From: Microbacterium sp.
GTDB taxonomy: Bacteria > Actinomycetota > Actinomycetes > Actinomycetales > Microbacteriaceae
Reading direction: 5' to 3'
DNA length: 64,000 nt
Assembly (NCBI RefSeq): GCF_051953575.1
Contig: NZ_JBQCIP010000061.1
Location: 2,808 to 66,807, forward strand
Positions within the stretch are counted from its first letter, which is position 1. Every line of letters starts with the position of its first letter. This document shows positions 10,439 through 51,697 of this stretch, in pieces. Under the pieces are notes generated by a model, which saw nothing but the letters and a program-made list of their open reading frames with translations, made no database searches and was not told the origin of the DNA. The position numbers and the translations under genes were made by a program.

Positions 10439-10511
10439 GGCCCCATCGTTTAGCGGCCTAGGACGCCGCCCTTTCACGGCGGTAGCACGGGTTCGAATCC
10501 CGTTGGGGTCA
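10439..10511 (+). tRNA. tRNA-Glu (anticodon UUC)
   Basis: Acceptor GGCCCCA/TGGGGTC, anticodon loop cctTTCac, T-arm gggttcgaatccc. Confidence 0.9.
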
Positions 10512-10532
10512 CGCCCACAACTAAATAAGCAT

Positions 10533-10606
10533 GGCCCTGTAGCGCAGTTGGTTAGCGTGCCGCCCTGTCACGGCGGAGGTCGCGGGTTCAAGTCCCGTCA
10601 GGGTCG
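10533..10606 (+). tRNA. tRNA-Asp (anticodon GUC)
   Basis: Acceptor GGCCCTG/CAGGGTC, anticodon loop cctGTCac, T-arm gggttcaagtccc. Confidence 0.9.
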
Positions 10607-10678
10607 CTCCGAGCGACGGGCCCTTTTCTTGAAGAGGGCCTTTCGTCTAGGAAGCGGCAGATCTTGTATGTGCCGCTC

Positions 10679-10751
10679 GGCTCTGTAGCTCAGTTGGTAG
10701 AGCGTTCGACTGAAAATCGAAAGGTCACCGGATCGATGCCGGTCGGAGCCA
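10679..10751 (+). tRNA. tRNA-Phe (anticodon GAA)
   Basis: Acceptor GGCTCTG/CGGAGCC, D-loop agctcagttggtagagc, anticodon loop actGAAaa, T-arm cggatcgatgccg. Confidence 0.9.
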
Positions 10752-36975: not shown

Positions 36976-37208
36976 GCGCGGAGGAAGGACTCGTCGAAGT
37001 ACAGCGTCCAGAGCCGCACAGTCGGTGCCGGGCGTACTGAGCACCACATGCCGGCCCCGAGGGTCATCGCGGAGCCCGGCGTCAGCTCGTGGATGCCGGT
37101 GGCGGTATCGACCTGCGCGGCACCCTCGAGGACGTGGACGATCTTAGCGTGCCCGAACACGGCGCGGTGGATGCGCTCACCGGAGGGTCGCGAAGTGACT
37201 CGCCGCAT
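36960..37208 (-). pseudogene. possible N-terminal (cupin/AraC_binding) fragment of an AraC-family regulator, lacking the HTH domain
   Basis: ERIHRAVFGHAKIVHVLEGAAQVDTATGIHELTPGSAMTLGAGMWCSVRP...LWTLYFDESFLRAHMRWVL. The reading frame then degenerates and no AraC HTH follows. Confidence 0.3.
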
Positions 37209-38054
37209 CCGCGACGCGGTTGTTGTACTCGACGGAGGGGTTGTAGGCACCGATCGCGGCGATCCAGTTCGCCGAGACGGTCAGGTCGCCGCCGACGTCA
37301 CACAGGTGGATCGCGGCAGCCAGGGCCGCGTCGTCGATCTGATTGATGTCGGTCTTGCCGTCCCGGTTTCCGTCCTGGCCGACCGCTTCCCACGTGGAAG
37401 GGATGAACTGCATGGGGCCGACTGCGCGGTCCCAGACGGCGTCACCGTCGATACGCCCCTGGTCGGTGTCGGGAACGGGGTTCGTCCCGTTCCCATCCAG
37501 CGGGATGCCGATGATCGCCGGAGCAACGGTGCCGTCGGGGCGGAGGGTCGCACCGGTCATGCTGCCATGCTCGGACTCGACGAAGCCGATCGCGGCGAGG
37601 GTGTTCCAGCCGATGCCGCAACCGGGGTGCGTCTCGTTGGCGGCGAGGGCGGCACCGGCGTAGGCGGCCAGCGCCCGCTCGGGGATGTTCCCGGCCTTCG
37701 CGATCCGCGTGACCCAGGCGGGGTGGGCGCGTTCGGCCACGGGCCGATCAGCGGCCGCGAGGGTGCCGAGGGTGGCCTGGGCGGGGGTGGGCTGCACGCG
37801 GATCGGGGTCCGGCTCGGCGTCGGGGTCGGGGTGGACGTCGCCGCCGTCGTGGTCGCGTCGGCGGGCGGCGGGGTGAGCGCCGCCGCCGCGAGCGCGCCG
37901 ACACCGAGCACCGCTAGGACGATCGTCGCGGCCGGCAGGGCCCACCGCCGCCACGCGGACGGCCGCGCTGACTCGACCGGGCTGTCGGTGACGGGAGTCT
38001 CGATTATCGCGTCGAAGGAGTCGCGTCGGCGGGATGCGGGGGTCGGGTCGGTCA
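37177..38054 (-). CDS. membrane-anchored lytic transglycosylase (SLT_2/MltB-like)
   Basis: ORF trimmed to MTDPTPASRR.... One TM helix, a T/P-rich linker, and GWNTLAAIGFVESEHGS and GPMQFIPSTWE motifs. Confidence 0.85.
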
Positions 38055-39002
38055 TCAGAGGGCTCCGGTGTTCACAGGTTCGAGGTCGGGCTCGGGTTCG
38101 GGCTCGGGCTCGGCGGCAGGAGGGGCCGCCTCGACGGCGCGGTCGCGGGTGCGCCGCCGCCAGGTCTTCGCGATGAGGCCCTGCCGGGGGGCGAAGAACC
38201 AGGCGAGCAGGAACGCAGCGGTCAGGACGAGGACGATCGTGCCGCCGGTCGGGAAGTCCCACGACCAGGAGATGTAGAGGCCGACGAGGGCCGAGACGCC
38301 GCCGATGATCGGGGCGAGCAGCATCATGATCCCGAGCCGGTCGGTCAGCAGCCGGGCGGTCGCCGCCGGCGTGATGAGCAGCGCGAGCACGAGGATGTTG
38401 CCGATGGTCTGCACGCTGATGACGACGGCGAGGGTGACCAGGACGTAGAGCACGAGGTCGAGCCAGAACACCTTCACGCCCATCGCGCGCGCGGACTCCC
38501 GGTCGAGAGAGATGGTGACGAACTCCTTGTGCAGGGCGAAGATCACCGCGAGTACGAGCACCCCGGTCCCACCGACGACGTAGAGATCGGAGTCGGGGAT
38601 GCCTGTGATCGAGCCGAACAGGAATTGCTGCAAGGAGCCGGCGTAGCCGGGGGCTTGGGAGATGACGACGATGCCGAGGGCGAACGCGGCGACGAAAAAG
38701 ACCCCGATGATGGAGTCCTCCTTCAGCCTGCGGTTCTGCGAGAACACCGCGACGAGAACGGCGGTGAGGATGCCGGCGATGGTGCCGCCGATCACGAGGT
38801 TGCCGCCGACGACGAACGCGACCGCCAGACCGGGGAAGACGGCGTGGGCGACGGCATCGCCGATGAAGGCCATGCCGCGCAGCACGACGAAGGTGCCGAC
38901 GACGCCGCAGACGAGGGAGGACATGACCGCGACGGCGAGCGCCTTCGGGAGGAACGCGAGGTCGGGGTTGAGCAGGTCGGTGAGGAAGTCGATCGGGTTC
39001 AT
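38055..39002 (-). CDS. metal (cluster-9, ZnuB/MntC/TroD-type) ABC transporter permease, anchored-repeat type
   Basis: 315 aa with 8-9 TM helices and ABC-3 family features. 4-nt overlap with the ATPase gene. The C-terminal tail is acidic and Pro-rich (EPEPEPEPDLEP). Confidence 0.9.
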   Translation of the reverse strand: MNPIDFLTDLLNPDLAFLPKALAVAVMSSLVCGVVGTFVVLRGMAFIGDAVAHAVFPGLAVAFVVGGNLVIGGTIAGILTAVLVAVFSQNRRLKEDSIIGVFFVAAFALGIVVISQAPGYAGSLQQFLFGSITGIPDSDLYVVGGTGVLVLAVIFALHKEFVTISLDRESARAMGVKVFWLDLVLYVLVTLAVVISVQTIGNILVLALLITPAATARLLTDRLGIMMLLAPIIGGVSALVGLYISWSWDFPTGGTIVLVLTAAFLLAWFFAPRQGLIAKTWRRRTRDRAVEAAPPAAEPEPEPEPDLEPVNTGAL

Positions 39003-39772
39003 GCAGTCACGCGCCGTTCAGGAGATGTGGCAGCCAGGATGCGCAGCAGGGCGGAGTCGGCGCCGACGCCGAACGTGGTCATCCACAAGGCGGGGTCGGC
39101 GGCGAGCTGGGCGGGTGTGCCCGTGGCGATGATCGTGCGGTTCAGCAGCGCGATCCGGTCGCAGCCGTCCAGCGCCGACAGCAGGTCGTGGGTCGTCATC
39201 AGCACGGCGCGGCCCTCGCGGGCGAGGTCGGCGAACAGCACGGACAGTAGCTCCTGGGTGGGCATGTCCAGGCCGGTGAACGGCTCATCGAGTAGCAGCA
39301 CCGCGGGCTGCGCGGCGAGCGCGCGGGCGACGAGCACCCGCTGGCGCTGACCTCCGGAGAGCTGCCCCACGGGGCGATCCGCGAGGTCCGTCATGCGCAC
39401 CCGCTCCAGCGCATCCGCGACGGCCTCCCATTGAGCGACGCCAGGCCGGCGGAACATCCCGAGCCGCCCAGTCAGGCCGGTCATGACGACGTTCGCGACC
39501 GAGATTGGGAACTCCCAGGCGAACTCGTGCCGCTGCGGGACGTACCCGATCGGGGTGCGGCCGGGCTTGGAGACGCGGCCCTCGACCAGCACGCGGCCGG
39601 TACTCGGGGCGAGCACTCCGAGGACGGTGCGCAGCAGGGTCGTCTTCCCGGCTCCGTTCGGGCCGATCAGTCCGACGAGCTCGCCGCGGTCGACGGCCAT
39701 GTCCGTGCCGGTGAGGACGAGCCGGCCGCCGAGCTCGACGGACACGTTCTCGATCACGAGCGCCGCGGTCAT
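38999..39772 (-). CDS. metal ABC transporter ATP-binding protein (ZnuC/MntB-type), anchored-repeat type
   Basis: Walker A GPNGAGKTT, signature LSGGQRQRV, Walker B LLLDEP. Confidence 0.92.
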   Translation of the reverse strand: MTAALVIENVSVELGGRLVLTGTDMAVDRGELVGLIGPNGAGKTTLLRTVLGVLAPSTGRVLVEGRVSKPGRTPIGYVPQRHEFAWEFPISVANVVMTGLTGRLGMFRRPGVAQWEAVADALERVRMTDLADRPVGQLSGGQRQRVLVARALAAQPAVLLLDEPFTGLDMPTQELLSVLFADLAREGRAVLMTTHDLLSALDGCDRIALLNRTIIATGTPAQLAADPALWMTTFGVGADSALLRILAATSPERRVTA

Positions 39773-40815
39773 CGCGCGTCCTCGGATACCCGATCGAGGA
39801 CGAGGTCGCTGTCCTGGGTGCGGGCGGCGAGCGCGCGCCGCTTAGCGCGGTTGCCGCGCACGATCACGACGACCACGCCGGCGACCAGGGCGACCGCGAC
39901 CAGGGCGATCGCGCCGATCAGGATGGGCACGAGCGGGTCGCCGGCCGGCTCCGGGGCGGCGGTCGCCGGCTCGTCCAGCGTCACGTCCTCCGCATCCGCG
40001 CCCTCGCCGGGGGCCGGGGCGGCAGCGCCGTCCCAGCTCGCGGCGAGCGCGTCGGCCGGGGCGGTCGCGGTGCCGACGGCGAACCGGATGACTTGCGTGT
40101 CGGAGACGGTCGAGCCGTCCACGAGGTGAGCGGTCGCCTCGAGCTGAAGCAGGTAGATGCCAGGCTCGGTGAACACCCAGTTCGCGTGCGTGTGCGTGTT
40201 CACGTCGACCCATATCGGCTGCGCGTCGGGCAGGCGGGAGTCCCACAGCAGTTGCGGCTCCCCGAACGACCCCGACTGGAGGTAGGTCGTCACGACCCCC
40301 GGCCCCTGCGCGCCGGTGAGCGACAGGGTGACACCGCGGTCGATCGTCTGCATCACCTCCGGGTCTTGCGTGTTCCAGCCCAGCCACACGACCTCGGGGT
40401 TCTGCGTCTGCGGCACGACCCACACCGGCTCGCCGGGGTCCGCGCCGACGAAGGCGTAGGCCGGATCATCCGGGACGGACAGCTGCGCCTGGTCGAGGAC
40501 GTGGAAGACGGTCTCGTCGGGGTAGCGCCACACGCTCGCCGCGTTCGCGTCGGCCTTGGCGACGTCATCGTGGATGAGGAACGTCCACTCGCCGTCGACG
40601 AACTTCGGCCCCATGTCGACGTGCCCGGCATCCAACGTCCGCTCGCCGTGGACGACCGCGAGGTTCGCGTCGAGGGTCTGATCGAGGTTCGGGTCGTCGT
40701 CACCGTCCTCGGCGAACGCGGCGGTCGGCGCGGCCAGCAACATGAGGGCGAGGGCGGCGATCCCGGCGCGCATGGCGCCGGCGGCTCGCCTGCGGGGTCG
40801 GGTGAGGGTCGTCAT
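39769..40815 (-). CDS. ABC-transporter-associated surface repeat protein (one full module, C-terminal TM anchor)
   Basis: Signal peptide, then AGHVDMGPKF...VPQTQNPEVVWLGWNT...THTHANWVFTEPGIYLLQLEA...IRFAVG, then a TM helix LVPILIGAIALVAVALVAGVVVVIV and a basic tail. Expected TIGR03769/TIGR03773-type family. Confidence 0.85.
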   Translation of the reverse strand: MTTLTRPRRRAAGAMRAGIAALALMLLAAPTAAFAEDGDDDPNLDQTLDANLAVVHGERTLDAGHVDMGPKFVDGEWTFLIHDDVAKADANAASVWRYPDETVFHVLDQAQLSVPDDPAYAFVGADPGEPVWVVPQTQNPEVVWLGWNTQDPEVMQTIDRGVTLSLTGAQGPGVVTTYLQSGSFGEPQLLWDSRLPDAQPIWVDVNTHTHANWVFTEPGIYLLQLEATAHLVDGSTVSDTQVIRFAVGTATAPADALAASWDGAAAPAPGEGADAEDVTLDEPATAAPEPAGDPLVPILIGAIALVAVALVAGVVVVIVRGNRAKRRALAARTQDSDLVLDRVSEDAR

Positions 40816-40881
40816 CGGGGACTGCTTTCTCTCTCATCGGTTCGGTCATGGGGTCGCCCTGCCGGGCGAGCTGGAGTGCGC

Positions 40882-42450
40882 TCATCCGCTGAGACAATCG
40901 CGGAGGGAGTCGGCGTTGAACCGCATCATGTCGACGTAGCTCGGCACCCGGTCGTCCAGCGCATCGCCATAGATCAGGCACACCTGGACGTGCTGCTCGG
41001 CGGCGAGCTCGGTGAGCACGTTCGCGCGGGCGATGTGGTTCGGTTCGAGGAACACCGCCGGGATGCGCAGCGTCCGCAGCGTCTCCGACAGCTTCCGGCG
41101 ATCCGCCAGCGATGGCTCCGCCGCTGGGTTCGGGGTCACGAATCCGGCGATCTGCATGTCGTAGGCGTGGGCGAGGTAGCCGAAGGCGTCGTGCGTCGTG
41201 ATGAGGTAGCGGTTCGCCTCGGGGATCGTCGCGATCTGCTCGCGCACGTAGTCGTCCACGTCCTCCAGCTCGGCGAGGTAGGCGGCGGCGTTCGCCGTGT
41301 AGTCGCGGGCACCTTCGGGGTCGGCGCTGATCAGGGTGTCGCGGATGAGCAGCACGTAGGCCATGCCGTTGCGGACGTCCTGCCACAGGTGCGGGTCGAT
41401 CTCGCCGTGGACGTGCTTGCCGAGCACGGCCTGCGGCAGCTGGTAGACCTGCGTGCCCGCGCGGCCGAGGAAGGAGAACTGCGACCCGGCTGGGATCTCC
41501 GACAGCGCCTTGGACGGCACGTCGATCACGACCTCCTCCGGGGCGTAGGAGACCTGCGTGTGCTCCCCGCCGCCCTCCGGGTCGTACCGGACCTCCAGCG
41601 CCCCGTCCTCGAGGTTGGCCGTCAGGTCCGCGTGCCCCTGGTTCAGCACCACCGCGTCCGGCATCCCCGCGTCGGCGGGGTTGACGCCGACTGCGAAGGT
41701 GAACGTCGCCTGCCCGAGCTCTTGCGGGCGCGAGGTGTCGTCGACCTGCACGCGGGCGTCGAGCGTGACGGTGTAGATGCCGGGCTCGGTGAATGTCCAC
41801 GACAGGTGCGTGTGCGCGTCGGCCGGCAGGGACATGGTGTCGTCCTTGTAGCCGTTGCTCGCGTCGAACCCGTTGGACGAGTCGAAGTACACGTCCGTGT
41901 CGCCGAACGTGCCCGTCAGGTACGCGAACACGTCGCCCGGCCCGGTGACCTCGGTGGCCGACAGCAGCACCTCGGAGGTGCGGGTCGCGCCGTAGCGGGC
42001 GGCGCCGTCGCCGTGCGCACGCAGACCGAGCCACACCGTGTCGAGGTTGACGTTCTCCACCAGCGGGATGATCTCCGCGGCGTACTTCACCGCTTCCTCT
42101 GCGAGGGAGACGTTCACCGCGCCGGCCTGCAGGTTGGAGTCGAGAGTCTTGATGACGTTGTGCTCCTCCAGCAGCGCATAGTTGGAGAAAGCGACGTCCG
42201 CGTACACGACGTTGCGGGCATCCCGCAGCGTCGGCTCGTAGATGTGCGGGTCCGCGCCGTCCGGCACGATTGAGGCGACGTCCACCCGGTCGCCGCCGAC
42301 GTTCTGCACGAGATCGCGCAGCAGCCCTGTCGTCGTGATGACCTGCAGCCGGTCGGTCTCGGCCGACAGCAGCGGCTTGCTCGCGCATCCGGTCAGCGTC
42401 AGCACCGTCGCGGCGAGCGCGGCCGTGGCGGCGAACATGCGGCGGCTCAT
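40882..42450 (-). CDS. anchored-repeat-type cluster-9 metal ABC substrate-binding lipoprotein with about 210-aa repeat-module insertion
   Basis: Lipobox LTLTGC. TroA/ZnuA ligand motifs DPHIYEP (aa 67-73) and DPHLWQD (aa 352-358) are separated by about 285 aa rather than about 70. TTHDAFGYL is present. The insertion carries HTHLSWTFTEPGIYTV. Confidence 0.9.
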   Translation of the reverse strand: MSRRMFAATAALAATVLTLTGCASKPLLSAETDRLQVITTTGLLRDLVQNVGGDRVDVASIVPDGADPHIYEPTLRDARNVVYADVAFSNYALLEEHNVIKTLDSNLQAGAVNVSLAEEAVKYAAEIIPLVENVNLDTVWLGLRAHGDGAARYGATRTSEVLLSATEVTGPGDVFAYLTGTFGDTDVYFDSSNGFDASNGYKDDTMSLPADAHTHLSWTFTEPGIYTVTLDARVQVDDTSRPQELGQATFTFAVGVNPADAGMPDAVVLNQGHADLTANLEDGALEVRYDPEGGGEHTQVSYAPEEVVIDVPSKALSEIPAGSQFSFLGRAGTQVYQLPQAVLGKHVHGEIDPHLWQDVRNGMAYVLLIRDTLISADPEGARDYTANAAAYLAELEDVDDYVREQIATIPEANRYLITTHDAFGYLAHAYDMQIAGFVTPNPAAEPSLADRRKLSETLRTLRIPAVFLEPNHIARANVLTELAAEQHVQVCLIYGDALDDRVPSYVDMMRFNADSLRDCLSG

Positions 42451-42937
42451 GCGACGGCCTCCGCCTGCCGGACGATGCCGATCCGTTCGTCTGGGTCGAC
42501 CAAGTGCAGGCCGGCGTCACGCAGCCCCGGCTCCAGCAGGGTCGCCAGGCGCGCGAACGTCTCCTGCCGCCCGGTTGCGGTGAGGTGGCCGAGCCTGTTC
42601 GCACAGACGAACCCGGCGACCGGCCCGGTCAGCTCGTCGAGGATGTCCGGGGCGGCGCCGGCGAGCACGCTCACCTGGTCGATCAGTTCGGGGTCGTCGG
42701 CGACACGGGCCAGCAGCACTGCCCGCATCGTCAGCGACGGCTCGATCGCGACCACCTGGGCGCCGTGGACCGAGCGAGCAGCCGTGTGCCGATCCCGGTG
42801 CCGGCGCCGACGTCGAGGACGGTCGCGTTCGGGTCGAGGTCGGCGAAGGCCGATGCCAGGGCGGGCCGCAGCCCACCCCAGACATCGGTCATGAACAGGT
42901 CATGGAACTCGCCCATGCCCTCGTATGCGTCGATCAC
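42447..42937 (-). pseudogene. class I SAM-dependent methyltransferase split by a 1-nt frameshift
   Basis: ORFs 42731..42970 (…VLDVGAGTGIGTRLLA) and 42447..42755 (VVAIEPSLTMRAVLL…) are the two halves of one MTase. The frames join as LLAR/VHGAQVVAIEPS if one G is added near 42770. GTGA overlap with the giant gene's stop and ATGA overlap with the SBP start. Confidence 0.7.
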
Positions 42938-45900
42938 GCCGGAAGGCCGCCCCTCCGTCGCCGCCACCACAGCACCCCCGTACCCGCAGCGCCCCCGATC
43001 AGGAGCGCGCCGAGGATCGACAGCAGCAGCGGGACCGGGTTGCCGGTCGCGAGCGCGGTGAACGGGTCAGTGATCCCGCCGCCGGGAACCGGGGTGCCCT
43101 GGCCGGGCAGCAGGTCACGGGCCGCAGCCGCCGCAGCCGCCGCGGCCTGATCGGCGGACAGCCTCGTTCCGTCATCGTCGGTCAGCACCGCGTTGGAAAT
43201 GGTGCCGCAGCCCGATCCCGAGCCCGCCGCCGACGCCGGGTCCACATTCCCGACCACGATCGTCAGGGTCTCCGTGTCGGAGGAGACCTGCCCGTTCGCG
43301 AGGGTCGCGGTCTGCGTCGTGCTGATCCGGTAGACGCCCTCGGCGGAGAACGCCCAGTTCGCGTGGGCGTGAACGCCGAGCGGGATGCTGTAGCTGCCGC
43401 CGTTGTTGAACACCATCGACTGCACGCCGCCGAACGAGCCGGACAGGTAGACGCGCAGCGCGCCGGGGCCGTCGATCGAGTTGATCGTCCAGGTGACAGG
43501 CCCGCGGGTGTTGGCGGCGTTCAGTGCCTCGGTCGACCAGCCCAGCCAGATCAGGTCCGGGTTCTGCGTCTGCGGCACCTGCCACACGCTCGACCCGGCC
43601 GCCCCCACCTGCCCATAGCCGGACGGGAGGGTGACACGGCTGGACGGCTTGAGCCACAAGATCGTACCGCCCGGCTCCCGGTAGACCTTCGCGCCGGACG
43701 TGTCGTCACCGATCAGCGATTCAAGCTTGCCGCCCACGATGCGGGAGCCGTAGTCGATGTGACCGGACGACAAAATCGTCGCCCCTGCGACGCACTGTGT
43801 CGCAGACACCTGGACCGCTCCCGGGGCGTCGCCGCCCGGGACAGATCCCGGAGGCGATGGTGTGGTAGGCGCGCGGACGATGGACAGGGAGTCCCAGCCG
43901 AGGAGGTCTCCCCCGGCGGTCTTCACCACCAGTCGATGACCACCCGTCGTCGCACCCGCCGGCAAGCGGACCTGGACCGCGCCCGACTGGCCGACCTGCG
44001 CCCAACCGAGCCAGTGCGGGGTGGAGTGCAACCACACCGACACCCAGGAGCCAGCACGATCCCGGTCGAGCTGTGCAGTCAGCAGCTGACCCGGGATGAA
44101 TCCGTTCTCCCCGCCCAGAACGCTCACCGTGCCTGCGGTCGCGTCCGTGAGCTCCTCATCCGGGACGGGGGTGCGGTCGTCATCGGCAGGGTGCCCCGGG
44201 GCGGCGGTGAAGCAGGCGGCGGGGTCGACCTTGCGCACGTCGACGGCGCCGACCGCAACGGCAAGAGTGAAGCTATCGCTCACTGGTTTGCCGGAGCTGA
44301 GGGTCGTTGCGCGCTCGAAGGCGAGACAATAGACGCCTTCGGCGCTGAACGCCCAAGTCCCATGGGCGTGGGTGTGCTTGGGAATTGCGGATGTGTCGGC
44401 GGCGGTGATGCCGTCCCGGGTGTTGAACATCACGCTGGGTTCGCCGAACACCCCTGTCTGGAACAGGGCGAATTCGCCCGGCCCGCTGCTGTCGACGAGC
44501 GACCAGCGGAATGCGTCTCGCGTGGCGTCATCCGCGATCGCCTCCGTGGACCAGCCCGGCCAAAGCAGCGCGTCGTCCTGGGTTTCGGGGAGGATCCACG
44601 TGGCAGAACCGGCGGCCCCGAGGAACGCATACTCGGGGAGATCGGGAACGCTCGTCCGCGCGGCCGGCTTCGCCTGCAGCACGGTCTTCGCCGGGTCGCG
44701 CCAGACAGGCTCGCTACTTTCGGTGGTGTCCTTGATGCGCGTGCCGAAAACGTCGCCGTTCAGAACGGATGCGACGTCGACGTGACCGAGGCCGAGGATC
44801 GTCGCCCCGGAAGCGGTCTTCGTACCGTTCGGCACATCCCATTCCACGGGCTCCGGCTCCCCAGGGCCTTCCCCTCCGGGATCCGTGCCCTCCCCTCCTT
44901 CCGCGCAAGGAGTGACGGTGGCGGGATCCTCGACCCCGACCGCGTAGGTGATCGTCTTCGTGGCTGCGGAGACCGTGCCATCGGCGAGTGTCGCGGACCA
45001 GGTCAACGGAACACAGTAGATCCCGGGCAGGGAGAACGACGGCTGATTGGCGAAGATGAACTGCGGCCACAGCGTGACACTGCGCGACTCGCCGGCGCGG
45101 GTGCCGAACGATCGGTTCTTGTAGTAGTCGAAGCTGACTGTTCCCGGCCCGTCGACCTCCCCCACACGGATGGTTGCGTCTCCCCGGATGTCGCCCCGCG
45201 GGAGATACTCACCGGAGTGAGTGAACTCCACGCCCTGCCAGGAGGGGATGCGCCAGCCGTCGCCCTGGTCGATGAAGCCGCCTATCACGACGGACTCCGG
45301 GTCGTGCCAGCTCGTCGCCCACGGGTGGGTAACGACTTTGGTCGCGACATCGAGCCCGTCCGGGCTCAACACCGGAGCGAACTGGACGCGGTCGCCCGCG
45401 GAGGGCACCAGTCCCTCGTCGCTGAGACCATCGAGATCGATAGGGGCGAGCTCGGAAACAGGACCATCAGGATGGGTCCGTGCGCAGGGCTGCACGGTGT
45501 GCAGGTCGACCGAGTCGCCGATCGCGATCGTGAGCTGGTCACGCACGACCTCGTCCGTCCCGGTCGCGGCGTCGCGGGCGCGGACCTCGAAGTTCAGGCA
45601 ATACACGCCCTCCTTCGTGAACGCCCATTCCAGATGCTGGTGACTCGTCGGACCGATGAACGATGCCGGCAGCGCGGTCGAACTCACATTCCTGTCGGGC
45701 ATGGCGAAGGTGCCCCCTTCGGGACCGGTGTAGCCGAGAAGAGTCCAGGTCGGCTTCCCCTCGGTCAACGCCTGTGGGAGGCTTTCATGCGTCAGACCCG
45801 GCCAGAGCGTCGAGGTCATGAACGCGTTGCTCGCAGAGAACCCGTAGTACGGCGTACCGAGAGGCCCTATCGCGCTGTAGTCTGCTCCGCTCCCAGTGGC

Positions 45901-48162
45901 CGTGTCCGGGACAGTGAAGTCGATGTTCGGTCCGCGGCCGACCCACACCGCATCTGCCACAGTGGGGAATGCACCGGTGTCGTGGACGTCGCCGGTGTGC
46001 AGCTCCAGCTCCCCGTCGACGAGCATGGGTCCGATGTCGAGGTGTCCTTGGTGGAACCAGGTGACGGTCGGATCCAGGTCATCGTAGATGTCCTCATCAC
46101 CGGGATCGGTCGGCCCGTCGCCGCCATGGGACTGGGCGCAGGGCTGGACAGTCGTGGCATCGATGCCGATGGCGAAGGTGAGCGTCGAGTAACCGATCGC
46201 AGGAGCCTCCGCCCCCACGAAGGTGCCTCGAGACTCCACGGTCAGGCAGTAGCGTCCGGGTGCGGTGAACGCCAGCCCCACGATGTTGAATGGGTCAGCG
46301 AACGGGTAGTAGCCGTCTTCGACCCCAGTGGCCCATACTGACCCAGCGCTTCCCTCCTCGCGCGAGTCCCATTGCGCCACGACGCTCGAATCGGTGATCC
46401 AATCGTTGTTCCCCGATGCATAGCTTGCGACGTAGCCTCCTGCCGGGGTCTCGGTGGCCACCAATCGCAGCGAGTACGCGCCGTCCACCAGCTCTTCGGC
46501 GGGGGTGGTGTCGGCCTGCGGCAGCAGAGTCAGGGGAATCCCTGGGTCGGAGAAGGGAGCGTAGGCGGGGCTGCCGGCTGTGCGCCACAGCCGTGTGCCG
46601 GGTGCGGCGATCTGCCCCCAGAGCTTCTGGTTCGTGGCGTCCGTGCCCTCCGCTGGCCAGGCGGCATCCTGTCGCGGCAGCGAGAACACCGTCCTCTGGG
46701 GCGTGAGGGTGGTGGTGCGACCGCCGACCACCCGGTTCAGATCCATCCGCAGGGTGCCGTCATCGGCCGGTACGGGCGAGAGGTGCACGTCGCCGGCTCC
46801 GATCACCGTGACCCCCTGCTCGACGGTCGGGGTGGGCGACGGGTCGTACGACCCGGTCGCAGTGGGCTGGGCGCAGGGGGTCACAGTGGCCGGATCCACA
46901 CCCACCGCGAACGTGAGCGTCGCGCGGTTGTTCGCGATGAGACCCGTTTCCAGGTCGAGCATTTCGCTGTCCAGCGTGAGGCAATAGATTCCGGCAGCGG
47001 TGAACGCGAACCCAGATGCCTCGCTCTCGACCGGGCCCTCGGCGTCCGGCGTCAACGACTGCCGGGGCGACACCGCCCCGATGGCGCCAGAATGCCACCG
47101 ACCAGCCGGATATCCATCATCACCGCGGAAGGTGGTGAACGCACCGCCCTCCGGCGACACCGCCTCGGCGACGCTCATCATCAGCTCGAAGCCGTTTTCC
47201 GCAGACACCCCGTGCGCGTCAGTGCGCAGCAGCAGGTCGTTGCCTGCCGAGGAGTCCGCGGCTGCCTCAGTGCGCCACACATCGCTGTGAGACGGGACCA
47301 GCAGATTCCAGTTCTTCCAGCCCTGCTCCGCGGGCTCGAACCCGGTGCCGGGCCAGGACTCGACGTTCGGCAGCGAGAACACCGTCTCGCCGGGATCGAG
47401 GACCGTGCCGCTCTCATCGATCAGTCGCAGACGCAGATTGCCGTCCTCCCAGCGGTTCGAGATGTCGACAGTGCCCTCGCTCAGCACGTGAACGGGCGGC
47501 ACACCCGCCGGCGCCGCGGCCAGAGCCTGGTCAGGGTGCTCGGTAGCCGGCTCGGAGACGGCTTCCCGATCGTCGGAATCCCGCCCCAGGTCGGGAGAGT
47601 CCTCTGCAGATTCTTCTGCCGTGGTCACGTGGAACCGGTAGGTCGTGTCCGCCGCCGTGGAGGTGGCCTCGGGCTGATCTGGCAGGGCGTAGCGCGTCTC
47701 GGCACCGACCACGAGCTCGTAGTCGCCGGGTACGGTGAAGGCCCAGTCGAGCATCGCCCCCTCCGCGTCGACGTCGAGCGTCTGGGCCTGTCCCTCTGCC
47801 GTCCCCCAGACGCGCGCTCCGCCCGCAGGTGTGGCGTGAACCGCACCGCCCTGCGGGGTCATGACCGAACGCAGCTCGAGTCGCACCCCGCTCAGCGATG
47901 CCCCGGTGGGCAGCCCGGCGGCATCCACCACGACACGCGTGCTGGCTGTGCCTTCGGTCACCGCGAACACAGACTCCACCGAGCCCCGACCATCGGCCGT
48001 GGCGGCCACCAGGGCAGTGCCTTCCGCCGCAACGGCGACGCCCGGCAGCACGGCGCCGTCGAGCAGGATCGGGGTGTCAGCGACAGCGGGCTGTGCCATC
48101 CCCCCGACGAGGGCGACGACCGCGACCAGCGCGAGGAGCAGCTTCAAGGGAGTCTTCTTCAT
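42934..48162 (-). CDS. 1742-aa cell-surface protein with about 7 tandem anchored-repeat modules and a C-terminal sorting-signal-like tail
   Basis: Signal peptide MKKTPLKLLLALVAVVALVGGMAQPAVA. Repeated GHxD...PQTQ..WLGWST...HxHxxWAFxxxGxYC...TxxxAxG units. The C-terminus is TALATGNPVPLLLSILGALLIGGAAGTGVLWWRRRRGG. Confidence 0.9.
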   Translation of the reverse strand: MKKTPLKLLLALVAVVALVGGMAQPAVADTPILLDGAVLPGVAVAAEGTALVAATADGRGSVESVFAVTEGTASTRVVVDAAGLPTGASLSGVRLELRSVMTPQGGAVHATPAGGARVWGTAEGQAQTLDVDAEGAMLDWAFTVPGDYELVVGAETRYALPDQPEATSTAADTTYRFHVTTAEESAEDSPDLGRDSDDREAVSEPATEHPDQALAAAPAGVPPVHVLSEGTVDISNRWEDGNLRLRLIDESGTVLDPGETVFSLPNVESWPGTGFEPAEQGWKNWNLLVPSHSDVWRTEAAADSSAGNDLLLRTDAHGVSAENGFELMMSVAEAVSPEGGAFTTFRGDDGYPAGRWHSGAIGAVSPRQSLTPDAEGPVESEASGFAFTAAGIYCLTLDSEMLDLETGLIANNRATLTFAVGVDPATVTPCAQPTATGSYDPSPTPTVEQGVTVIGAGDVHLSPVPADDGTLRMDLNRVVGGRTTTLTPQRTVFSLPRQDAAWPAEGTDATNQKLWGQIAAPGTRLWRTAGSPAYAPFSDPGIPLTLLPQADTTPAEELVDGAYSLRLVATETPAGGYVASYASGNNDWITDSSVVAQWDSREEGSAGSVWATGVEDGYYPFADPFNIVGLAFTAPGRYCLTVESRGTFVGAEAPAIGYSTLTFAIGIDATTVQPCAQSHGGDGPTDPGDEDIYDDLDPTVTWFHQGHLDIGPMLVDGELELHTGDVHDTGAFPTVADAVWVGRGPNIDFTVPDTATGSGADYSAIGPLGTPYYGFSASNAFMTSTLWPGLTHESLPQALTEGKPTWTLLGYTGPEGGTFAMPDRNVSSTALPASFIGPTSHQHLEWAFTKEGVYCLNFEVRARDAATGTDEVVRDQLTIAIGDSVDLHTVQPCARTHPDGPVSELAPIDLDGLSDEGLVPSAGDRVQFAPVLSPDGLDVATKVVTHPWATSWHDPESVVIGGFIDQGDGWRIPSWQGVEFTHSGEYLPRGDIRGDATIRVGEVDGPGTVSFDYYKNRSFGTRAGESRSVTLWPQFIFANQPSFSLPGIYCVPLTWSATLADGTVSAATKTITYAVGVEDPATVTPCAEGGEGTDPGGEGPGEPEPVEWDVPNGTKTASGATILGLGHVDVASVLNGDVFGTRIKDTTESSEPVWRDPAKTVLQAKPAARTSVPDLPEYAFLGAAGSATWILPETQDDALLWPGWSTEAIADDATRDAFRWSLVDSSGPGEFALFQTGVFGEPSVMFNTRDGITAADTSAIPKHTHAHGTWAFSAEGVYCLAFERATTLSSGKPVSDSFTLAVAVGAVDVRKVDPAACFTAAPGHPADDDRTPVPDEELTDATAGTVSVLGGENGFIPGQLLTAQLDRDRAGSWVSVWLHSTPHWLGWAQVGQSGAVQVRLPAGATTGGHRLVVKTAGGDLLGWDSLSIVRAPTTPSPPGSVPGGDAPGAVQVSATQCVAGATILSSGHIDYGSRIVGGKLESLIGDDTSGAKVYREPGGTILWLKPSSRVTLPSGYGQVGAAGSSVWQVPQTQNPDLIWLGWSTEALNAANTRGPVTWTINSIDGPGALRVYLSGSFGGVQSMVFNNGGSYSIPLGVHAHANWAFSAEGVYRISTTQTATLANGQVSSDTETLTIVVGNVDPASAAGSGSGCGTISNAVLTDDDGTRLSADQAAAAAAAAARDLLPGQGTPVPGGGITDPFTALATGNPVPLLLSILGALLIGGAAGTGVLWWRRRRGGLPA

Positions 48163-48199
48163 CGGGAGGCTTTCAGCAGACAGTGCGGGACAGGAAGCG

Positions 48200-48243
48200 G
48201 GAGCTGCACGCAGCTCCTGGCTCCGCCAGATGGACGGAGCCAG
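48200..48243 (-). terminator. two adjacent hairpins between the small secreted-protein gene and the giant gene (partial terminator or attenuator candidate)
   Basis: ggagctgc-ac-gcagctcc (8 bp) and ctggctccg-N9-cggagccag (9 bp), both perfect. Confidence 0.45.
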
Positions 48244-48268
48244 GAGCGCGTGGTCAGAGGGCAGCCGA

Positions 48269-48904
48269 TTAGAACGTGAAGAGGATGTTGTTCGTCTTGC
48301 CGCCGGGGCCCAGACCCGAGCCCGTCACCTTGACGCCGATCTGCGCCTGCGACGCCGAGGTCGTGAACGTCCACGTGAAGTGCTCGTGGAAGTCCGCCGT
48401 GGCGCCCGCCGGGAGCACGAACGACTCGGTGTTGTCGCCGACGGAAGTGTCGAAGTAGACCGTCGAGGGGTTGGTCGGATCGGTGATCTTCACGTTGGTC
48501 CCCGCGGGAACTCTCGTGAGCTGGACCGTGTAGGTGCGGTTCACGGTGGGGGAAGCGAAGGCATCGTCGATGCGGATGCCGCCACCACCGACCGGGGTGA
48601 TCGAGGTGGCGTCGTCACCGTCGACGACCTTGCCCGAGCCGACGGCGAACCAGCCCGCCGGGGCGTCGACGTCTTTGTAGCTGCCCGCGCCCGAGTGATC
48701 GAAGTTGACGACTTCGAGCGGGGTGTTACTGACGGCGATGAGGTCCCATTCACCGGTCTGCGCCCCGGTGACGACGGTCGCGGCGTTCGCGGCGACCGGC
48801 GCACCGATGCTGAGGGCGACCGCCGCGATTCCAGCGACGACCGATCCGAGAAGGGTCTTGTTCCTGCGGACTGCGCTCTGGCGGTCATGGGTGATGGTGG
48901 ACAT
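48269..48904 (-). CDS. small secreted protein with a single degenerate half-module (FHEHFTWTF)
   Basis: ORF trimmed to MSTITHDRQ..., preceded by AAGGAGA. Signal peptide ends ...APVAANA. The C-terminal LPAGATADFHEHFTWTFTTSASQAQIGVKV resembles the HxHxxWxF core of the repeat family. Confidence 0.8.
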   Translation of the reverse strand: MSTITHDRQSAVRRNKTLLGSVVAGIAAVALSIGAPVAANAATVVTGAQTGEWDLIAVSNTPLEVVNFDHSGAGSYKDVDAPAGWFAVGSGKVVDGDDATSITPVGGGGIRIDDAFASPTVNRTYTVQLTRVPAGTNVKITDPTNPSTVYFDTSVGDNTESFVLPAGATADFHEHFTWTFTTSASQAQIGVKVTGSGLGPGGKTNNILFTF

Positions 48905-49225
48905 GTTCGTTCTCCTTGAGTTGATTGCGTGGATGGATGGCTCGCACGCTCCAGCAGGCGCAGACACGGTCTACGCAAGGGGGGCTCAGACTGCCCTGCT
49001 ACCGGAGCGCGCCCAGCATTCGGTCCGAGTAGATGAACTGCGTCCGCACAAATCCGACGTGCTGGCATCGGACCGGAACCCATATCGCACGTCCGACGCG
49101 TCTCGGCTGGAGGTTCCAGGCCGCGCGCAACAGGACGTCAGGGCCGCAGCCGCAGCGAGGTGCTTCGCCGCGGGCAAGGTGACCCCGGCCATGCATGCGC
49201 CGTGCGTGCATCCTCAGACCTGCGA

Positions 49226-49258
49226 CGCTGTCGCGATTCGAATCGCGAGGCGACAGCG
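49226..49258. promoter_or_regulatory. long hairpin containing a perfect 18-bp palindrome TCGCGATTCGAATCGCGA
   Basis: The palindrome spans 49231-49248. The outer arms cgctg / cgacagcg extend the stem with a 2-nt bulge. Confidence 0.5.
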
Positions 49259-49360
49259 TGGTGACGCGAGCGAGGATTCGTCGGCGACTCCTGACCCGGC
49301 CCATCGCCTACCCCGTTTCTGCCCGCAACCCACGCACGACGTGAACATCGCTATCCATAA

Positions 49361-49377
49361 ATGAGAATGGTTATCAT
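49361..49377. promoter_or_regulatory. Fur-family (Zur-like) box candidate
   Basis: ATGAGAATGGTTATCAT has 6 of 8 palindromic pairs. The inner 15-mer matches TGAAAATGATTTTCA at 12 of 15 positions. It sits in a local AT-rich island (ccataaatgagaatggttatcattacc). Confidence 0.5.
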
Positions 49378-49739
49378 TACCACCGTCCGTATCTTGGCGG
49401 CTCGGTGGACCGTCTGTCAAATTGATGACGACTGGAGATGAGTCCGCGACACTCGAATCAGAGGGAGTGGACCGAGCCGGATGGGCAGGTGGGGCGAGGC
49501 TGCCTTCTGCCTGAGATTCAGAAAGCTGACGCGCGGCGGCTGAGGTGAGGCTGGTTCTTGGCCGTGCGCCCCTCGCCACACCGGTCGACGTTCAGGTGCG
49601 TGCCCCTCTCGTGCGTTGCTCCGCGCCGACGCTCCGTTGGCGATCACTCGACGTCGCCGCCTCGGATCCTGCTCATGGGTGCGCGTGCTCACGCACCCGG
49701 TCAGCCGGCCTTCGGTCGGCCGACTGAGCCGGCATGACG

Positions 49740-49790: not shown

Positions 49791-49946
49791 TCAGTGCTCG
49801 TCGTAGTGGTCGGCGTGGGCGGCGTGCTTGTGCCCGTCATGCACGTAGTCGAAGTGATCGCCGTGCTCGACGGCCTCGTGGCCGCAATCGGCGCCGTGCG
49901 CGTGCTCCGCCAGGCTGTGCTCGGCATGGGTGTCGGTGGTGGTCAT
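49791..49946 (-). CDS. 51-aa histidine-rich small protein (candidate metal-binding protein or metallochaperone)
   Basis: MTTTDTHAEHSLAEHAHGADCGHEAVEHGDHFDYVHDGHKHAAHADHYDEH has 14 His, 1 Cys and 13 Asp+Glu in 51 residues. GGAAGGAACAGACAGC precedes the ATG. Confidence 0.65.
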   Translation of the reverse strand: MTTTDTHAEHSLAEHAHGADCGHEAVEHGDHFDYVHDGHKHAAHADHYDEH

Positions 49947-50055: not shown

Positions 50056-50631
50056 TCAGAAGGTGCTGCTCTGCCCGTCCATCGACAGCTGCGGGATCGT
50101 CGTGCACACGAAGACCGTCGCCTGAGGTGTGATCGCCTCGAACAGATGCGGCGCATCCGCCGGGAAGCGCAGAAAGTCTCCCGCCTGCGCCATCACCGGG
50201 GCCGAGGCCGGGCCGATGCGCACCCGGCCCTCGAGCACGAGGCAGTGTCGCAGGGCTCCCCGGCCCTGCGGCTTGCGCGTCGATGGGCCGCGGTTGGCCT
50301 CGAGGCGCAGCACGCTGTTCGTGACGTATCCCGAGCCGAACGCGTGGTCGAGCTGACGCACCTGCAGCGTGCCGTCATCCCGCCACGGGACGGCGTCGCG
50401 CCATTGGACGAGCACCTCGTTGCCCAACTCGCTCACGAGCGCGCGGATGCTGACGCCGAGCGCAGAGGCGAGCCGCTCGATCGTGTCGACGGTGGGGTTC
50501 CCTTCGCCGGACTCGATGCTCGCGACGGTCTGCTTCGACAGTCCCGCCCGCCGTCCAATCTCGGCGAGCGACAGGCGGCGGTCCTCGCGGAAGCGGCGGA
50601 GGTTCCGCGCGACCATGTCGTTCGCATCCAT
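50056..50631 (-). CDS. XRE-family HTH + cupin-domain transcriptional regulator
   Basis: ORF trimmed to MDANDMVARNLRRFREDRRLSLAEIGRRAGLSKQTVASIESGEGNPTVDTIERLASAL, with a C-terminal cupin segment (GDFLRFPADAPHLFEA). Confidence 0.88.
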   Translation of the reverse strand: MDANDMVARNLRRFREDRRLSLAEIGRRAGLSKQTVASIESGEGNPTVDTIERLASALGVSIRALVSELGNEVLVQWRDAVPWRDDGTLQVRQLDHAFGSGYVTNSVLRLEANRGPSTRKPQGRGALRHCLVLEGRVRIGPASAPVMAQAGDFLRFPADAPHLFEAITPQATVFVCTTIPQLSMDGQSSTF

Positions 50632-50701
50632 GGCTCCGGCTCCTTCGCGTGGCGGCATGCTCCCCCCATCATCGCCGATGCGGCTCGCCCGGCCGATCGT
50701 C

Positions 50702-51697
50702 TCAGAGGACGGCGGAGGGCGTCGTCCCGAGGCTGCGCGCGTCGCCGCCGAACACGAAGGGGTCGCCGTACCACGTGAGTCCATCGGGGAAGGCCTCACG
50801 CTCCCACTTGATCGGCTCCCAGTCCGGCTCGAAGATCAGATACCCGCCCGCGTAGATCTCCACCCGATGGCCCGAGCCCGGGTCGAGCACGTAGAGGTAC
50901 ATCGCCTGCCCGATCCCGTGCTTGCCGGGGCCGAGGTCGAAGGTGACGTCGTAGTCGCGGAGCACGTCGGCCGCCGTCAGCACGTCCGAGAGATTCTCGA
51001 GGTTGAAGGCGACGTGGTGCAGCTGGGCGGTCTTGCCGAACGAGTTCGCGACCATCGCCAGGTCGTGCACCTGGGGCGTCACCGACATCCACGAGGCCAG
51101 CACCGTCGTGTCATCCCGGTGCAGCGCGTACTCGCGGCGGCGGAAACCTAGGTTCTCACGCACCCAGCCCTCGGCCTGGTTGATCGTCTCCCTCGAGGTC
51201 TGCACGTTGAAGTGGTCGATCCGTCGGACACCGAGACCCCGGCGGCGGGAGCTGTTGCTCGGCAGCTTCGACGAGATCTCCTCCGGCGCGCCGGGCTTGT
51301 CGATGTCGTAGTAGAGCTCGAACGGATGCCCGCTTCCGGGAACCAGGAACCGCACCGCCGTGCCGCGGCCCACCTCCGCGCCTGCGGGCACCTCGACGGT
51401 CTCGATCTCCTGGCGCTCGAACTCGGCCGCGAACAGCTCGACATCCTGCGGACGCCGGACGCGGAAGCTGTAGGAGTTCACCACGCTCTCGGGCTGCTCC
51501 GTGAGCACGAGCGAGTGGTGCGCGAGTTCCTGGTACCCCCGCAGGTAGGCGGTGCTCCCCTCGCGGTGCACGATCTCCATTCCGAGGAGGTCCCCGAAGA
51601 AGTGCAGCGAGGTCGCGAGGTCCTTCGTGCCCAGGTTGATCGCCCCGCAGTGAGCGATCTGCGGACCGGGGTCGTACCCGTCGGCGAATGCGGTCAT
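50702..51697 (-). CDS. extradiol ring-cleavage dioxygenase (catechol 2,3-dioxygenase / BphC-type, two-domain VOC)
   Basis: 331 aa. Starts MTAFADGYDPGPQIAHCGAINLGTKDLATSLHFF.... Contains RIDHFNV, LHHVAFN and the GHRVEIY vicinal-oxygen-chelate metal ligand contexts. ATGA overlap with the ligase gene. Confidence 0.9.
   Translation of the reverse strand: MTAFADGYDPGPQIAHCGAINLGTKDLATSLHFFGDLLGMEIVHREGSTAYLRGYQELAHHSLVLTEQPESVVNSYSFRVRRPQDVELFAAEFERQEIETVEVPAGAEVGRGTAVRFLVPGSGHPFELYYDIDKPGAPEEISSKLPSNSSRRRGLGVRRIDHFNVQTSRETINQAEGWVRENLGFRRREYALHRDDTTVLASWMSVTPQVHDLAMVANSFGKTAQLHHVAFNLENLSDVLTAADVLRDYDVTFDLGPGKHGIGQAMYLYVLDPGSGHRVEIYAGGYLIFEPDWEPIKWEREAFPDGLTWYGDPFVFGGDARSLGTTPSAVL

Follow-up and report, generated by a model that had tools for sequence, protein, structure and literature searches.

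A cluster of eight genes in a 64-kb window of Microbacterium DNA (the window being the whole stretch that was analysed, with an actinobacterial GC content of ~70%) is described here. It probably serves high-affinity uptake of zinc under repression by Zur, as an operon of the type of Corynebacterium diphtheriae ZnuAECB/ZnuF/ZnuG, and its host is a Microbacterium closely related to M. azadirachtae. The architecture, the family membership, the Zur box, the ligand set and the co-conservation of the motifs were computed here; the regulation by zinc and Zur (PMC6711530) is known from homologues, and so are the thermal shifts with zinc, the need for ZnuE and its histidines and the location in the wall (PMC12445094). 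The cluster consists of eight co-directional open reading frames (ORFs), A to H, arranged head to tail at 37177-48904 of the minus strand. They encode an ATP-binding cassette (ABC) transporter with its substrate-binding protein (SBP) and several accessory proteins, some of which have predicted transmembrane (TM) segments:

48269..48904, minus: gene A, 211 aa, secreted, with a signal peptide, no anchor and a FHEHFTWTF motif
42934..48162, minus: gene B, the giant, a 1742-aa TIGR03773 surface protein with a signal peptide and 7 modules
42447..42937, minus: gene C, a decayed class I S-adenosylmethionine (SAM) methyltransferase
40882..42450, minus: gene D, the 522-aa TIGR03772 lipoprotein SBP with the lipobox LTGC
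39769..40815, minus: gene E, 348 aa, ZnuE-like, with a signal peptide, one module, a C-terminal TM helix and a basic tail
38999..39772, minus: gene F, the ABC ATPase, TIGR03771
38055..39002, minus: gene G, the ABC-3 permease, TIGR03770
37177..38055, minus: gene H, a 292-aa membrane-anchored MltB/SLT_2-type lytic transglycosylase with an ESEHG motif

An earlier note, made from the sequence of this DNA alone, had described eight co-directional genes joined by ATGA overlaps at 42447-42450, 39769-39772 and 38999-39002 and by a GTGA overlap at 42934-42937. All four are present as given, along with a fifth, TGATG, at 38055-38057, in which the permease stop and the transglycosylase start share one base.

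The profile search proposed in that note, with TIGR03769-TIGR03773 and NF038134, matched the core genes, the giant and protein E as expected. In NCBIfam, the SBP scored 740.4 bits against TIGR03772 (cutoff 350.45) over the full length of the model (1-486/486), the ATPase 348.9 bits against TIGR03771 (cutoff 268.8), the permease 472.1 bits against TIGR03770 (cutoff 296.8) and the giant 526.2 bits against TIGR03773 (cutoff 190.3). The giant was also matched in four stretches each by NF038134 (choice-of-anchor M, 395.7 bits) and TIGR03769 (181 bits). All five models of the TIGR03769-TIGR03773/NF038134 set are thus matched above cutoff, without essential difference from the set, except that the 348-aa protein E is named here through NF038134 (202 bits) and not through TIGR03773, for which its 174 bits fall just under the cutoff of 190. 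The module has no model in Pfam, whose matches are confined to the ZnuA fold, ABC_tran, ABC-3 and a partial match to SLT_2 in H. With every core gene above its NCBIfam equivalog cutoff, the locus is, as judged by these profiles, a complete anchored-repeat ABC system. The proteins are 95-100% identical to their counterparts in Microbacterium azadirachtae and in a metagenome-assembled genome (MAG) of a Microbacterium sp., and the public annotation of the identical MAG proteins already carries the anchored-repeat family names. The same names are given by the Prokaryotic Genome Annotation Pipeline (PGAP) to dip0438, dip0440 and dip0441, the SBP, ATPase and permease of the C. diphtheriae cluster. 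For comparison, 80 related loci were collected by means of the SBP, and the core gene order was found to be kept in them.

Zinc as the predicted substrate

The transported metal is most likely zinc, which is the best-supported substrate because of the Zur box found here and in related loci and the site of three histidines and an aspartate (3His+Asp) predicted in the SBP. Two features of the minus strand bear on the transcription of the cluster:

49359..49379, minus: Zur box TAATGATAACCATTCTCATTT, 455 nt upstream of the gene A ATG (48904)
48207..48252, minus: hairpin with a ~20-bp perfect stem directly after the gene A stop, no U-tract, -50.3 kcal/mol, z = -4.2 against shuffles

The box TAATGATAACCATTCTCATTT has a single mismatch to taaTGaNAANNNTTNtCANta, the 21-bp consensus of actinobacterial Zur boxes given in PMC5472717, and is the only site within 4 mismatches of that consensus in the 64-kb window; the 15-bp core pattern is expected 0.11 times by chance. 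In the 65 loci with enough upstream sequence, a core-pattern box (<=1 mismatch, within a 900-nt zone at the cluster head) was observed in 37, as compared to ~2 expected from a background of ~0.037 sites/kb (Poisson 4e-32), and several of the remaining boxes sit, within the same loci, ahead of other genes for module proteins. Control of the cluster by Zur hence appears to be widespread across the Actinomycetota. The box lies roughly 0 to 500 nt from the matched region or reading frame of gene A in other genera, and the 455-nt arrangement recurs, 95% identical, in M. azadirachtae.

The leader between the box and gene A (48905-49358) contains neither a credible ORF nor a divergent plus-strand gene, is not unusually structured (z = -1.4) and gave no match in an Rfam scan of the whole window, where only three tRNAs were found. 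An inverted repeat, CGCTGTCGC...GCGACAGCG, was observed in it on the minus strand. The hairpin at 48207-48252 may serve as an attenuator or a stabiliser and so determine how much A is made relative to the giant.

Gene D has a ZnuA/TroA-fold core (PF01297, 220.8 bits in Pfam), and in Foldseek comparisons it matched MtsA, AztC and YfeA with E-values of about 1e-14. Its predicted ligands H69, H354, H420 and D496 are invariant in 36 orthologues and point to a 3His+Asp site of the TroA/AztC kind. AztC was the best model outside the family, and the most similar solved structures by local alignment were AztC (32-34% identity) and TroA (30%).

Manganese or iron, transported by a TroA/MntC-like system under another Fur-family regulator that binds the palindrome, is regarded as very unlikely. 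The top sequence matches in the PDB are the manganese SBPs MntA and PsaA, TroA-type 3His+Asp sites can bind manganese too, and the Zur proteins of C. glutamicum and M. tuberculosis bind DNA with manganese as well in vitro. On the other hand, H420, the third ligand, aligns with the Glu ligand of MntA and PsaA, so that a histidine stands where manganese SBPs have a glutamate; the box agrees with the Zur consensus at all specified positions but one; the orthologous C. diphtheriae cluster is regulated by zinc and Zur; and a search for a box of the DtxR/IdeR type found none within 7 mismatches.

The histidine module and its permuted copy in the binding protein

A module shared by several proteins of the cluster had been proposed in the earlier note. 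An iterated search seeded with the module of protein E recovered seven domains in the giant (E-values of 1e-16 to 4e-73), in agreement with the about seven modules counted there, and two in the SBP; on these values the repeats are real and far beyond chance. The landmarks GHxD, PQTQ, WLGW[SN]T, HxHxxWxFxxxGxY and FAVG were all found in the module alignment. The histidine landmarks, however, are carried by only three of the seven modules of the giant, and GHxD and HxH occur together in the following five copies:

45523..46059, minus: giant module 4, residues 702-880, His-complete, GHLD ... SHQHLEW
44239..44814, minus: giant module 6, residues 1117-1308, His-complete, GHVD ... THAHGTW
43228..43797, minus: giant module 7, residues 1456-1645, His-complete, GHID ... 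VHAHANW, nearest the membrane anchor
41425..42063, minus: SBP insert, residues 130-342, a circularly permuted module
40036-40665, minus: E module, residues 51-260 of the 348-aa protein

The insertion of a module in the SBP, as proposed earlier, was confirmed, and its halves were in addition found to be circularly permuted. Residues 130-261 correspond to the C-half of the module (WLG..., the HTH tripeptide at 213-215 and FAVG) and residues 266-342 to its N-half (GHAD at 272-275 and LPQ), and the two halves, rejoined in the opposite order, align cleanly with the other modules. Protein E thus carries H65xD67 followed by H208xH210, all four residues being invariant in 40 ZnuE-like orthologues, whereas the order in the SBP is reversed, H213xH215 preceding H273xD275.

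Residues 32-98 and 342-520 of the SBP form the core that aligns to solved SBPs, and the insert stops ~10 residues before the DPH motif that contains the second ligand histidine. ZnuA proteins have a His-rich loop directly before their second ligand histidine, and the offset between 1pq4 (Synechocystis ZnuA) and the loop-deleted 2ov1 places that loop in the same inter-ligand segment. A flexible His-rich loop of this type was not found in gene D, which has the ~210-aa folded permuted module instead and a short KHVHGE left. Since the position of the insert is that of the ZnuA loop, a folded, putatively zinc-binding domain would here replace a disordered loop.

The two histidine motifs are kept or lost together. 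Among 351 distinct, near-full-length modules from the window and the 80 loci, a sample biased towards detectable modules, 313 have both HxD and HxH, 36 have neither and 2 are discordant (Fisher 8e-47, without correction for phylogeny). This is the pattern expected if both motifs form one site, and PMC12445094 reports for ZnuE and ZnuG that the residues of both share a pocket in the AlphaFold DB models. The modules are very probably metal-binding. The AlphaFold2 model of protein E (predicted local distance difference test score, pLDDT, of 81) comprises a beta-sandwich at residues 59-247 and a long C-terminal helix at 295-343. A Foldseek search of the PDB with this model returned nothing at E<=1e-3, only generic beta-sandwiches, and no fold was assigned; the module is thus without a solved relative.

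The giant envelope protein and a proposed passage of zinc through the wall

The modules of the giant occur in the order - - - + - + + (+ denoting the presence of HxD and HxH). Multi-module proteins encoded upstream of the SBP have the same order in Microbacterium, Luethyella and Pseudarthrobacter, and close variants of it in Propionibacteriaceae, Bifidobacterium, Streptomyces and Cryobacterium. In 43 of the 45 multi-module proteins the last, anchor-proximal module is His-complete, and in 32 the first is His-less. The metal sites therefore cluster near the membrane, beside protein E and the SBP. The earlier note had pictured the modules as a surface antenna that captures metal and feeds the SBP; its link to metal uptake and the probable metal binding of the modules stand, but the His-complete modules are membrane-proximal and the distal, N-terminal ones lack the ligands across genera. 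The giant would be better explained as a stalk or scaffold whose binding sites are proximal, or by a second role of its distal modules, than as an antenna with a metal-catching tip. Modules 6 and 7 are separated by a domain of ~145 aa (residues 1309-1455) for which Pfam and NCBIfam have no model; many orthologous giants have it too, and its matches there are labelled 'Bmid'.

The tail of the giant had been described as resembling a sorting signal. Its TM helix and RRRR are present in the conserved form GNPVPLLLSILG...LWWRRRR (the protein reads ...FTALATGNPVPLLLSILGALLIGGAAGTGVLWWRRRRGGLPA), but no LPXTG or LAXTG motif (L[PA]xTG) was found ahead of the C-terminal TM helix. This non-sortase tail, G[ND]PVPLLLSILG...LWWRRRR, is conserved in orthologues across genera; LAxTG does occur in other module proteins of distant loci.

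The closest known system is that of C. diphtheriae. The troA-dip0445 cluster of this species is zinc-repressed via Zur, and so are the homologous surface proteins CmrA and CmrA2 (Peng and Schmitt 2019, PMC6711530). Peng, Lyman and Schmitt (J Bacteriol 2025; PMC12445094) reported that ZnuAECB, ZnuF and ZnuG share the HxD/HxH motif, its order being reversed in ZnuA, that the C. diphtheriae homologues show zinc-dependent thermal shifts, that znuE and its three histidines are required for growth in low zinc, and that ZnuF and ZnuG are located in the wall, ZnuF having no sortase signal and being independent of all six sortases. The authors liken the system to the polyhistidine-triad (Pht) proteins that deliver zinc to AdcAII. 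In view of these findings and of the Pht analogy, the central hypothesis of the earlier note is essentially the published working model, and its remark that the repeat had no known biochemical function has been superseded. The family is already annotated and, since 2025, experimentally characterised in C. diphtheriae; the locus adds no new principle.

In the mechanism proposed for the Microbacterium cluster, Zur would leave the box at 49359-49379 when zinc is scarce and the operon would be transcribed. The importer formed by F and G would be served by the lipoprotein SBP with its 3His+Asp site, in which a circularly permuted ~200-aa beta-sandwich module takes the place of the flexible His-rich loop of ZnuA. 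One histidine of GHxD and the two of HxH, plus an aspartate, would form the zinc site of the module, of which the membrane-anchored protein E has one copy and the giant three, all towards the membrane. These sites would bind Zn(II) in the wall and pass it inward to the SBP and the permease, and from their arrangement we infer a direct transfer of zinc between modules and SBP.

Several observations weigh against this reading. The Microbacterium locus is known from its genes alone, the experiments being those on the C. diphtheriae homologues. The box lies unusually far (455 nt) from the ATG of gene A, no sigma-70-like promoter was found in a scan of 48100-49700, and expression of the giant might be uncoupled from the box by the hairpin after gene A; because of the long leader and this strong hairpin, A-H are rated only as likely to form a single operon. 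Giant modules 1, 2, 3 and 5 have neither GHxD nor HxH, which leaves four of seven without ligands. In C. diphtheriae, the triple-alanine (3xAla) mutants still shift with zinc, so that zinc binding at the motif itself is unproven, and deletion of znuF/znuG leaves growth unimpaired and even rescues a transporter mutant (PMC12445094), on account of which sequestration is as likely as relay.

The last result bears on the explanation that the wall proteins are zinc sinks, serving storage or buffering and not relay, with an indirect effect on uptake by an importer that needs only the SBP and the ZnuE-like protein. It would account for the restored growth of the strain that lacks the transporter, for the overexpression that limits growth in low zinc and for the single deletions that give no phenotype in C. 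diphtheriae (PMC12445094), and the hairpin between A and the giant implies that the expression of the latter may be set separately. It is harder to reconcile with the position of the giant, which in most of the 80 loci is encoded immediately before the SBP in the same cluster headed by the Zur box, and with the location of the His-complete modules near the membrane, beside the SBP and E, which suits a hand-over. The sink is considered somewhat unlikely, though the most substantial of the alternatives.

The ligand-less modules could also be explained if the giant were mainly an adhesin or a structural protein of the wall, its distal His-less modules binding a non-metal ligand and its linkage to the transporter reflecting co-regulation only. 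The conservation of the pattern - - - + - + + across genera argues that the His-less modules are kept by selection, and the fold search gave a weak, non-significant likeness to Ig-like adhesin domains. However, neither structure nor sequence gave a significant match to an adhesin family, and the nearly constant His-complete last module and the thermal shifts of the homologues with zinc are not expected of such a protein, which makes this explanation rather improbable. The uptake mechanism set out above is preferred to both.

The znuAECB/znuF-dip0445 system of C. diphtheriae and the present cluster share the same SBP, ATPase and permease equivalogs, the order SBP, module protein, ATPase and permease (znuA-E-C-B), the HxD/HxH pair ~150 aa apart and reversed in the SBP, multi-module envelope proteins and an upstream Zur box. 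ZnuF, like the giant, has a TM helix and a basic tail without a sortase signal. The two systems differ in that a single cluster with a single Zur box appears to be present here as against two operons in C. diphtheriae, and that the giant has seven modules, four of them His-less, as against one to three motifs in ZnuF, ZnuG and CmrA. A small secreted HxH protein in first place, a decayed methyltransferase and a translationally coupled lytic transglycosylase in last place are extra here, while equivalents of dip0444 and of dip0445 (PorA-like) and an LPXTG protein are missing from the cluster.

The streptococcal Pht proteins with AdcAII (zinc hand-over from PhtD to AdcAII) are likewise zinc-regulated surface proteins with multiple histidine motifs beside a cluster A-I zinc SBP, to which they are proposed to supply zinc; their attachment to the surface is independent of sortase. 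Their sequences are unrelated (HxxHxH as against HxD...HxH on a ~200-aa beta-sandwich), and no Pht model was among the reported Pfam and NCBIfam matches of the giant or E, so that the analogy is functional only. The His-rich loop of ZnuA, the ZinT fusion of AdcA and AztC with its chaperone AztD similarly combine an auxiliary zinc element with a cluster A-I SBP, but whereas those elements are a disordered loop, a C-terminal ZinT domain and a separate beta-propeller chaperone, the present one is a domain that is folded and circularly permuted.

Acquiring zinc when it is scarce is important for actinobacterial physiology and for pathogens of the same class, such as C. diphtheriae, Cutibacterium and Trueperella. 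The comparison of the 80 loci sharpens three questions raised by the C. diphtheriae work of 2025: whether the HxD/HxH pair is the functional unit (349 of 351 modules have either both motifs or neither), why large proteins retain distal His-less modules and how proteins with conserved non-LPXTG tails reach the wall. The locus is of residual interest for these modules and this tail, for its coupled transglycosylase and for its small secreted HxH protein.

Accessory genes and surroundings of the cluster

The transglycosylase encoded by gene H was recognised by PF13406 (28.3 bits, gathering score 24.3), by a partial match to TIGR02283 and by its ESEHG motif, and its gene follows that of the permease in 30 of 68 evaluable loci. 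It is present in 20 of the 27 loci that have an upstream protein with a PVPLLL-TM-RR tail as compared to 10 of the 41 others (Fisher 7e-5), an association that is confounded by phylogeny. The earlier proposal that the enzyme opens the wall for the giant is speculation, this association being all that was found for it; it may permit, without establishing, a role of H in the deployment of a non-sortase protein.

Gene A gave no match in Pfam or NCBIfam even at E<=10. Profile-profile alignment of gene A to the module with hhalign covered only 19-27 columns around HxHxxWxF, with a probability of 0.6-14%. An exhaustive phmmer search of 1.8 billion representatives placed its family in nine 50%-identity clusters, and one member, P0257, has sub-threshold matches to the C-half of NF038134. 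A further phmmer match, P0256, is a repetitive nucleotidase and was rejected as spurious. Gene A is the first gene in 10 related loci, and in a Bifidobacterium locus the equivalent position is held by a true single-module protein. The earlier description of the 211-aa protein as a half-module thus has the short HxHxxWxF alignment and the bridging P0257 in its favour and no family match; a very divergent C-half of the module is plausible but weak.

In a more far-reaching view, the His-less distal modules, the non-sortase tail (G[ND]PVPLLL-TM-WWRRRR) and the coupled transglycosylase would together provide for the sortase-independent deployment of a wall-spanning zinc-binding protein, which would be the 'novel localisation mechanism' of ZnuF that Peng et al. 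left unidentified, and gene A would be a soluble zinc scavenger that feeds the system. We regard this as doubtful and give it little weight.

Gene C is split between two reading frames, as the earlier note had seen, and the joined product matches Methyltransf_25 across the junction (40.5 bits). It has, in addition, a ~75-aa deletion relative to intact orthologues and is thus a decayed pseudogene; sequencing error as the sole cause of the frameshift was ruled out because of this large internal deletion. Intact orthologues of ~235 aa occupy the same position in five related loci (L001, L003, L005, L009 and L022), and in L002 and L048 it is decayed as well. Gene C is an accessory gene that is being lost in this lineage.

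A 51-aa His/Cys-rich ORF, MTTTDTHAEHSLAEHAHGADCGHEAVEHGDHFDYVHDGHKHAAHADHYDEH, with a good Shine-Dalgarno sequence lies just upstream of the Zur box, at 49794-49946 of the minus strand. It has no match in Pfam or NCBIfam. Homologues 55-90% identical to it, often in tandem pairs, are found <10 kb from the anchored-repeat SBP in 12 of the 80 loci, with a partial match in L046, and the ORF is a candidate zinc-related small protein. In three distant loci, homologues of the methyltransferase lie beside small His-rich genes: L028 (19815-20938), L065 (4711-5748), where the two genes diverge from a Zur-like box at 5261, and L069 (662-1841). There are hints that the methyltransferase and the His-rich peptides may be functionally linked.

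Upstream of the small His-rich ORF lies a regulator of the XRE family with a helix-turn-helix (HTH) and a cupin domain (50056-50799, minus), and further upstream a probable extradiol dioxygenase-like ORF and an acyl-CoA ligase, apparently unrelated to the zinc cluster. The three tRNA genes, the sole Rfam matches in the window, stand in tandem at 10439-10751 of the plus strand.

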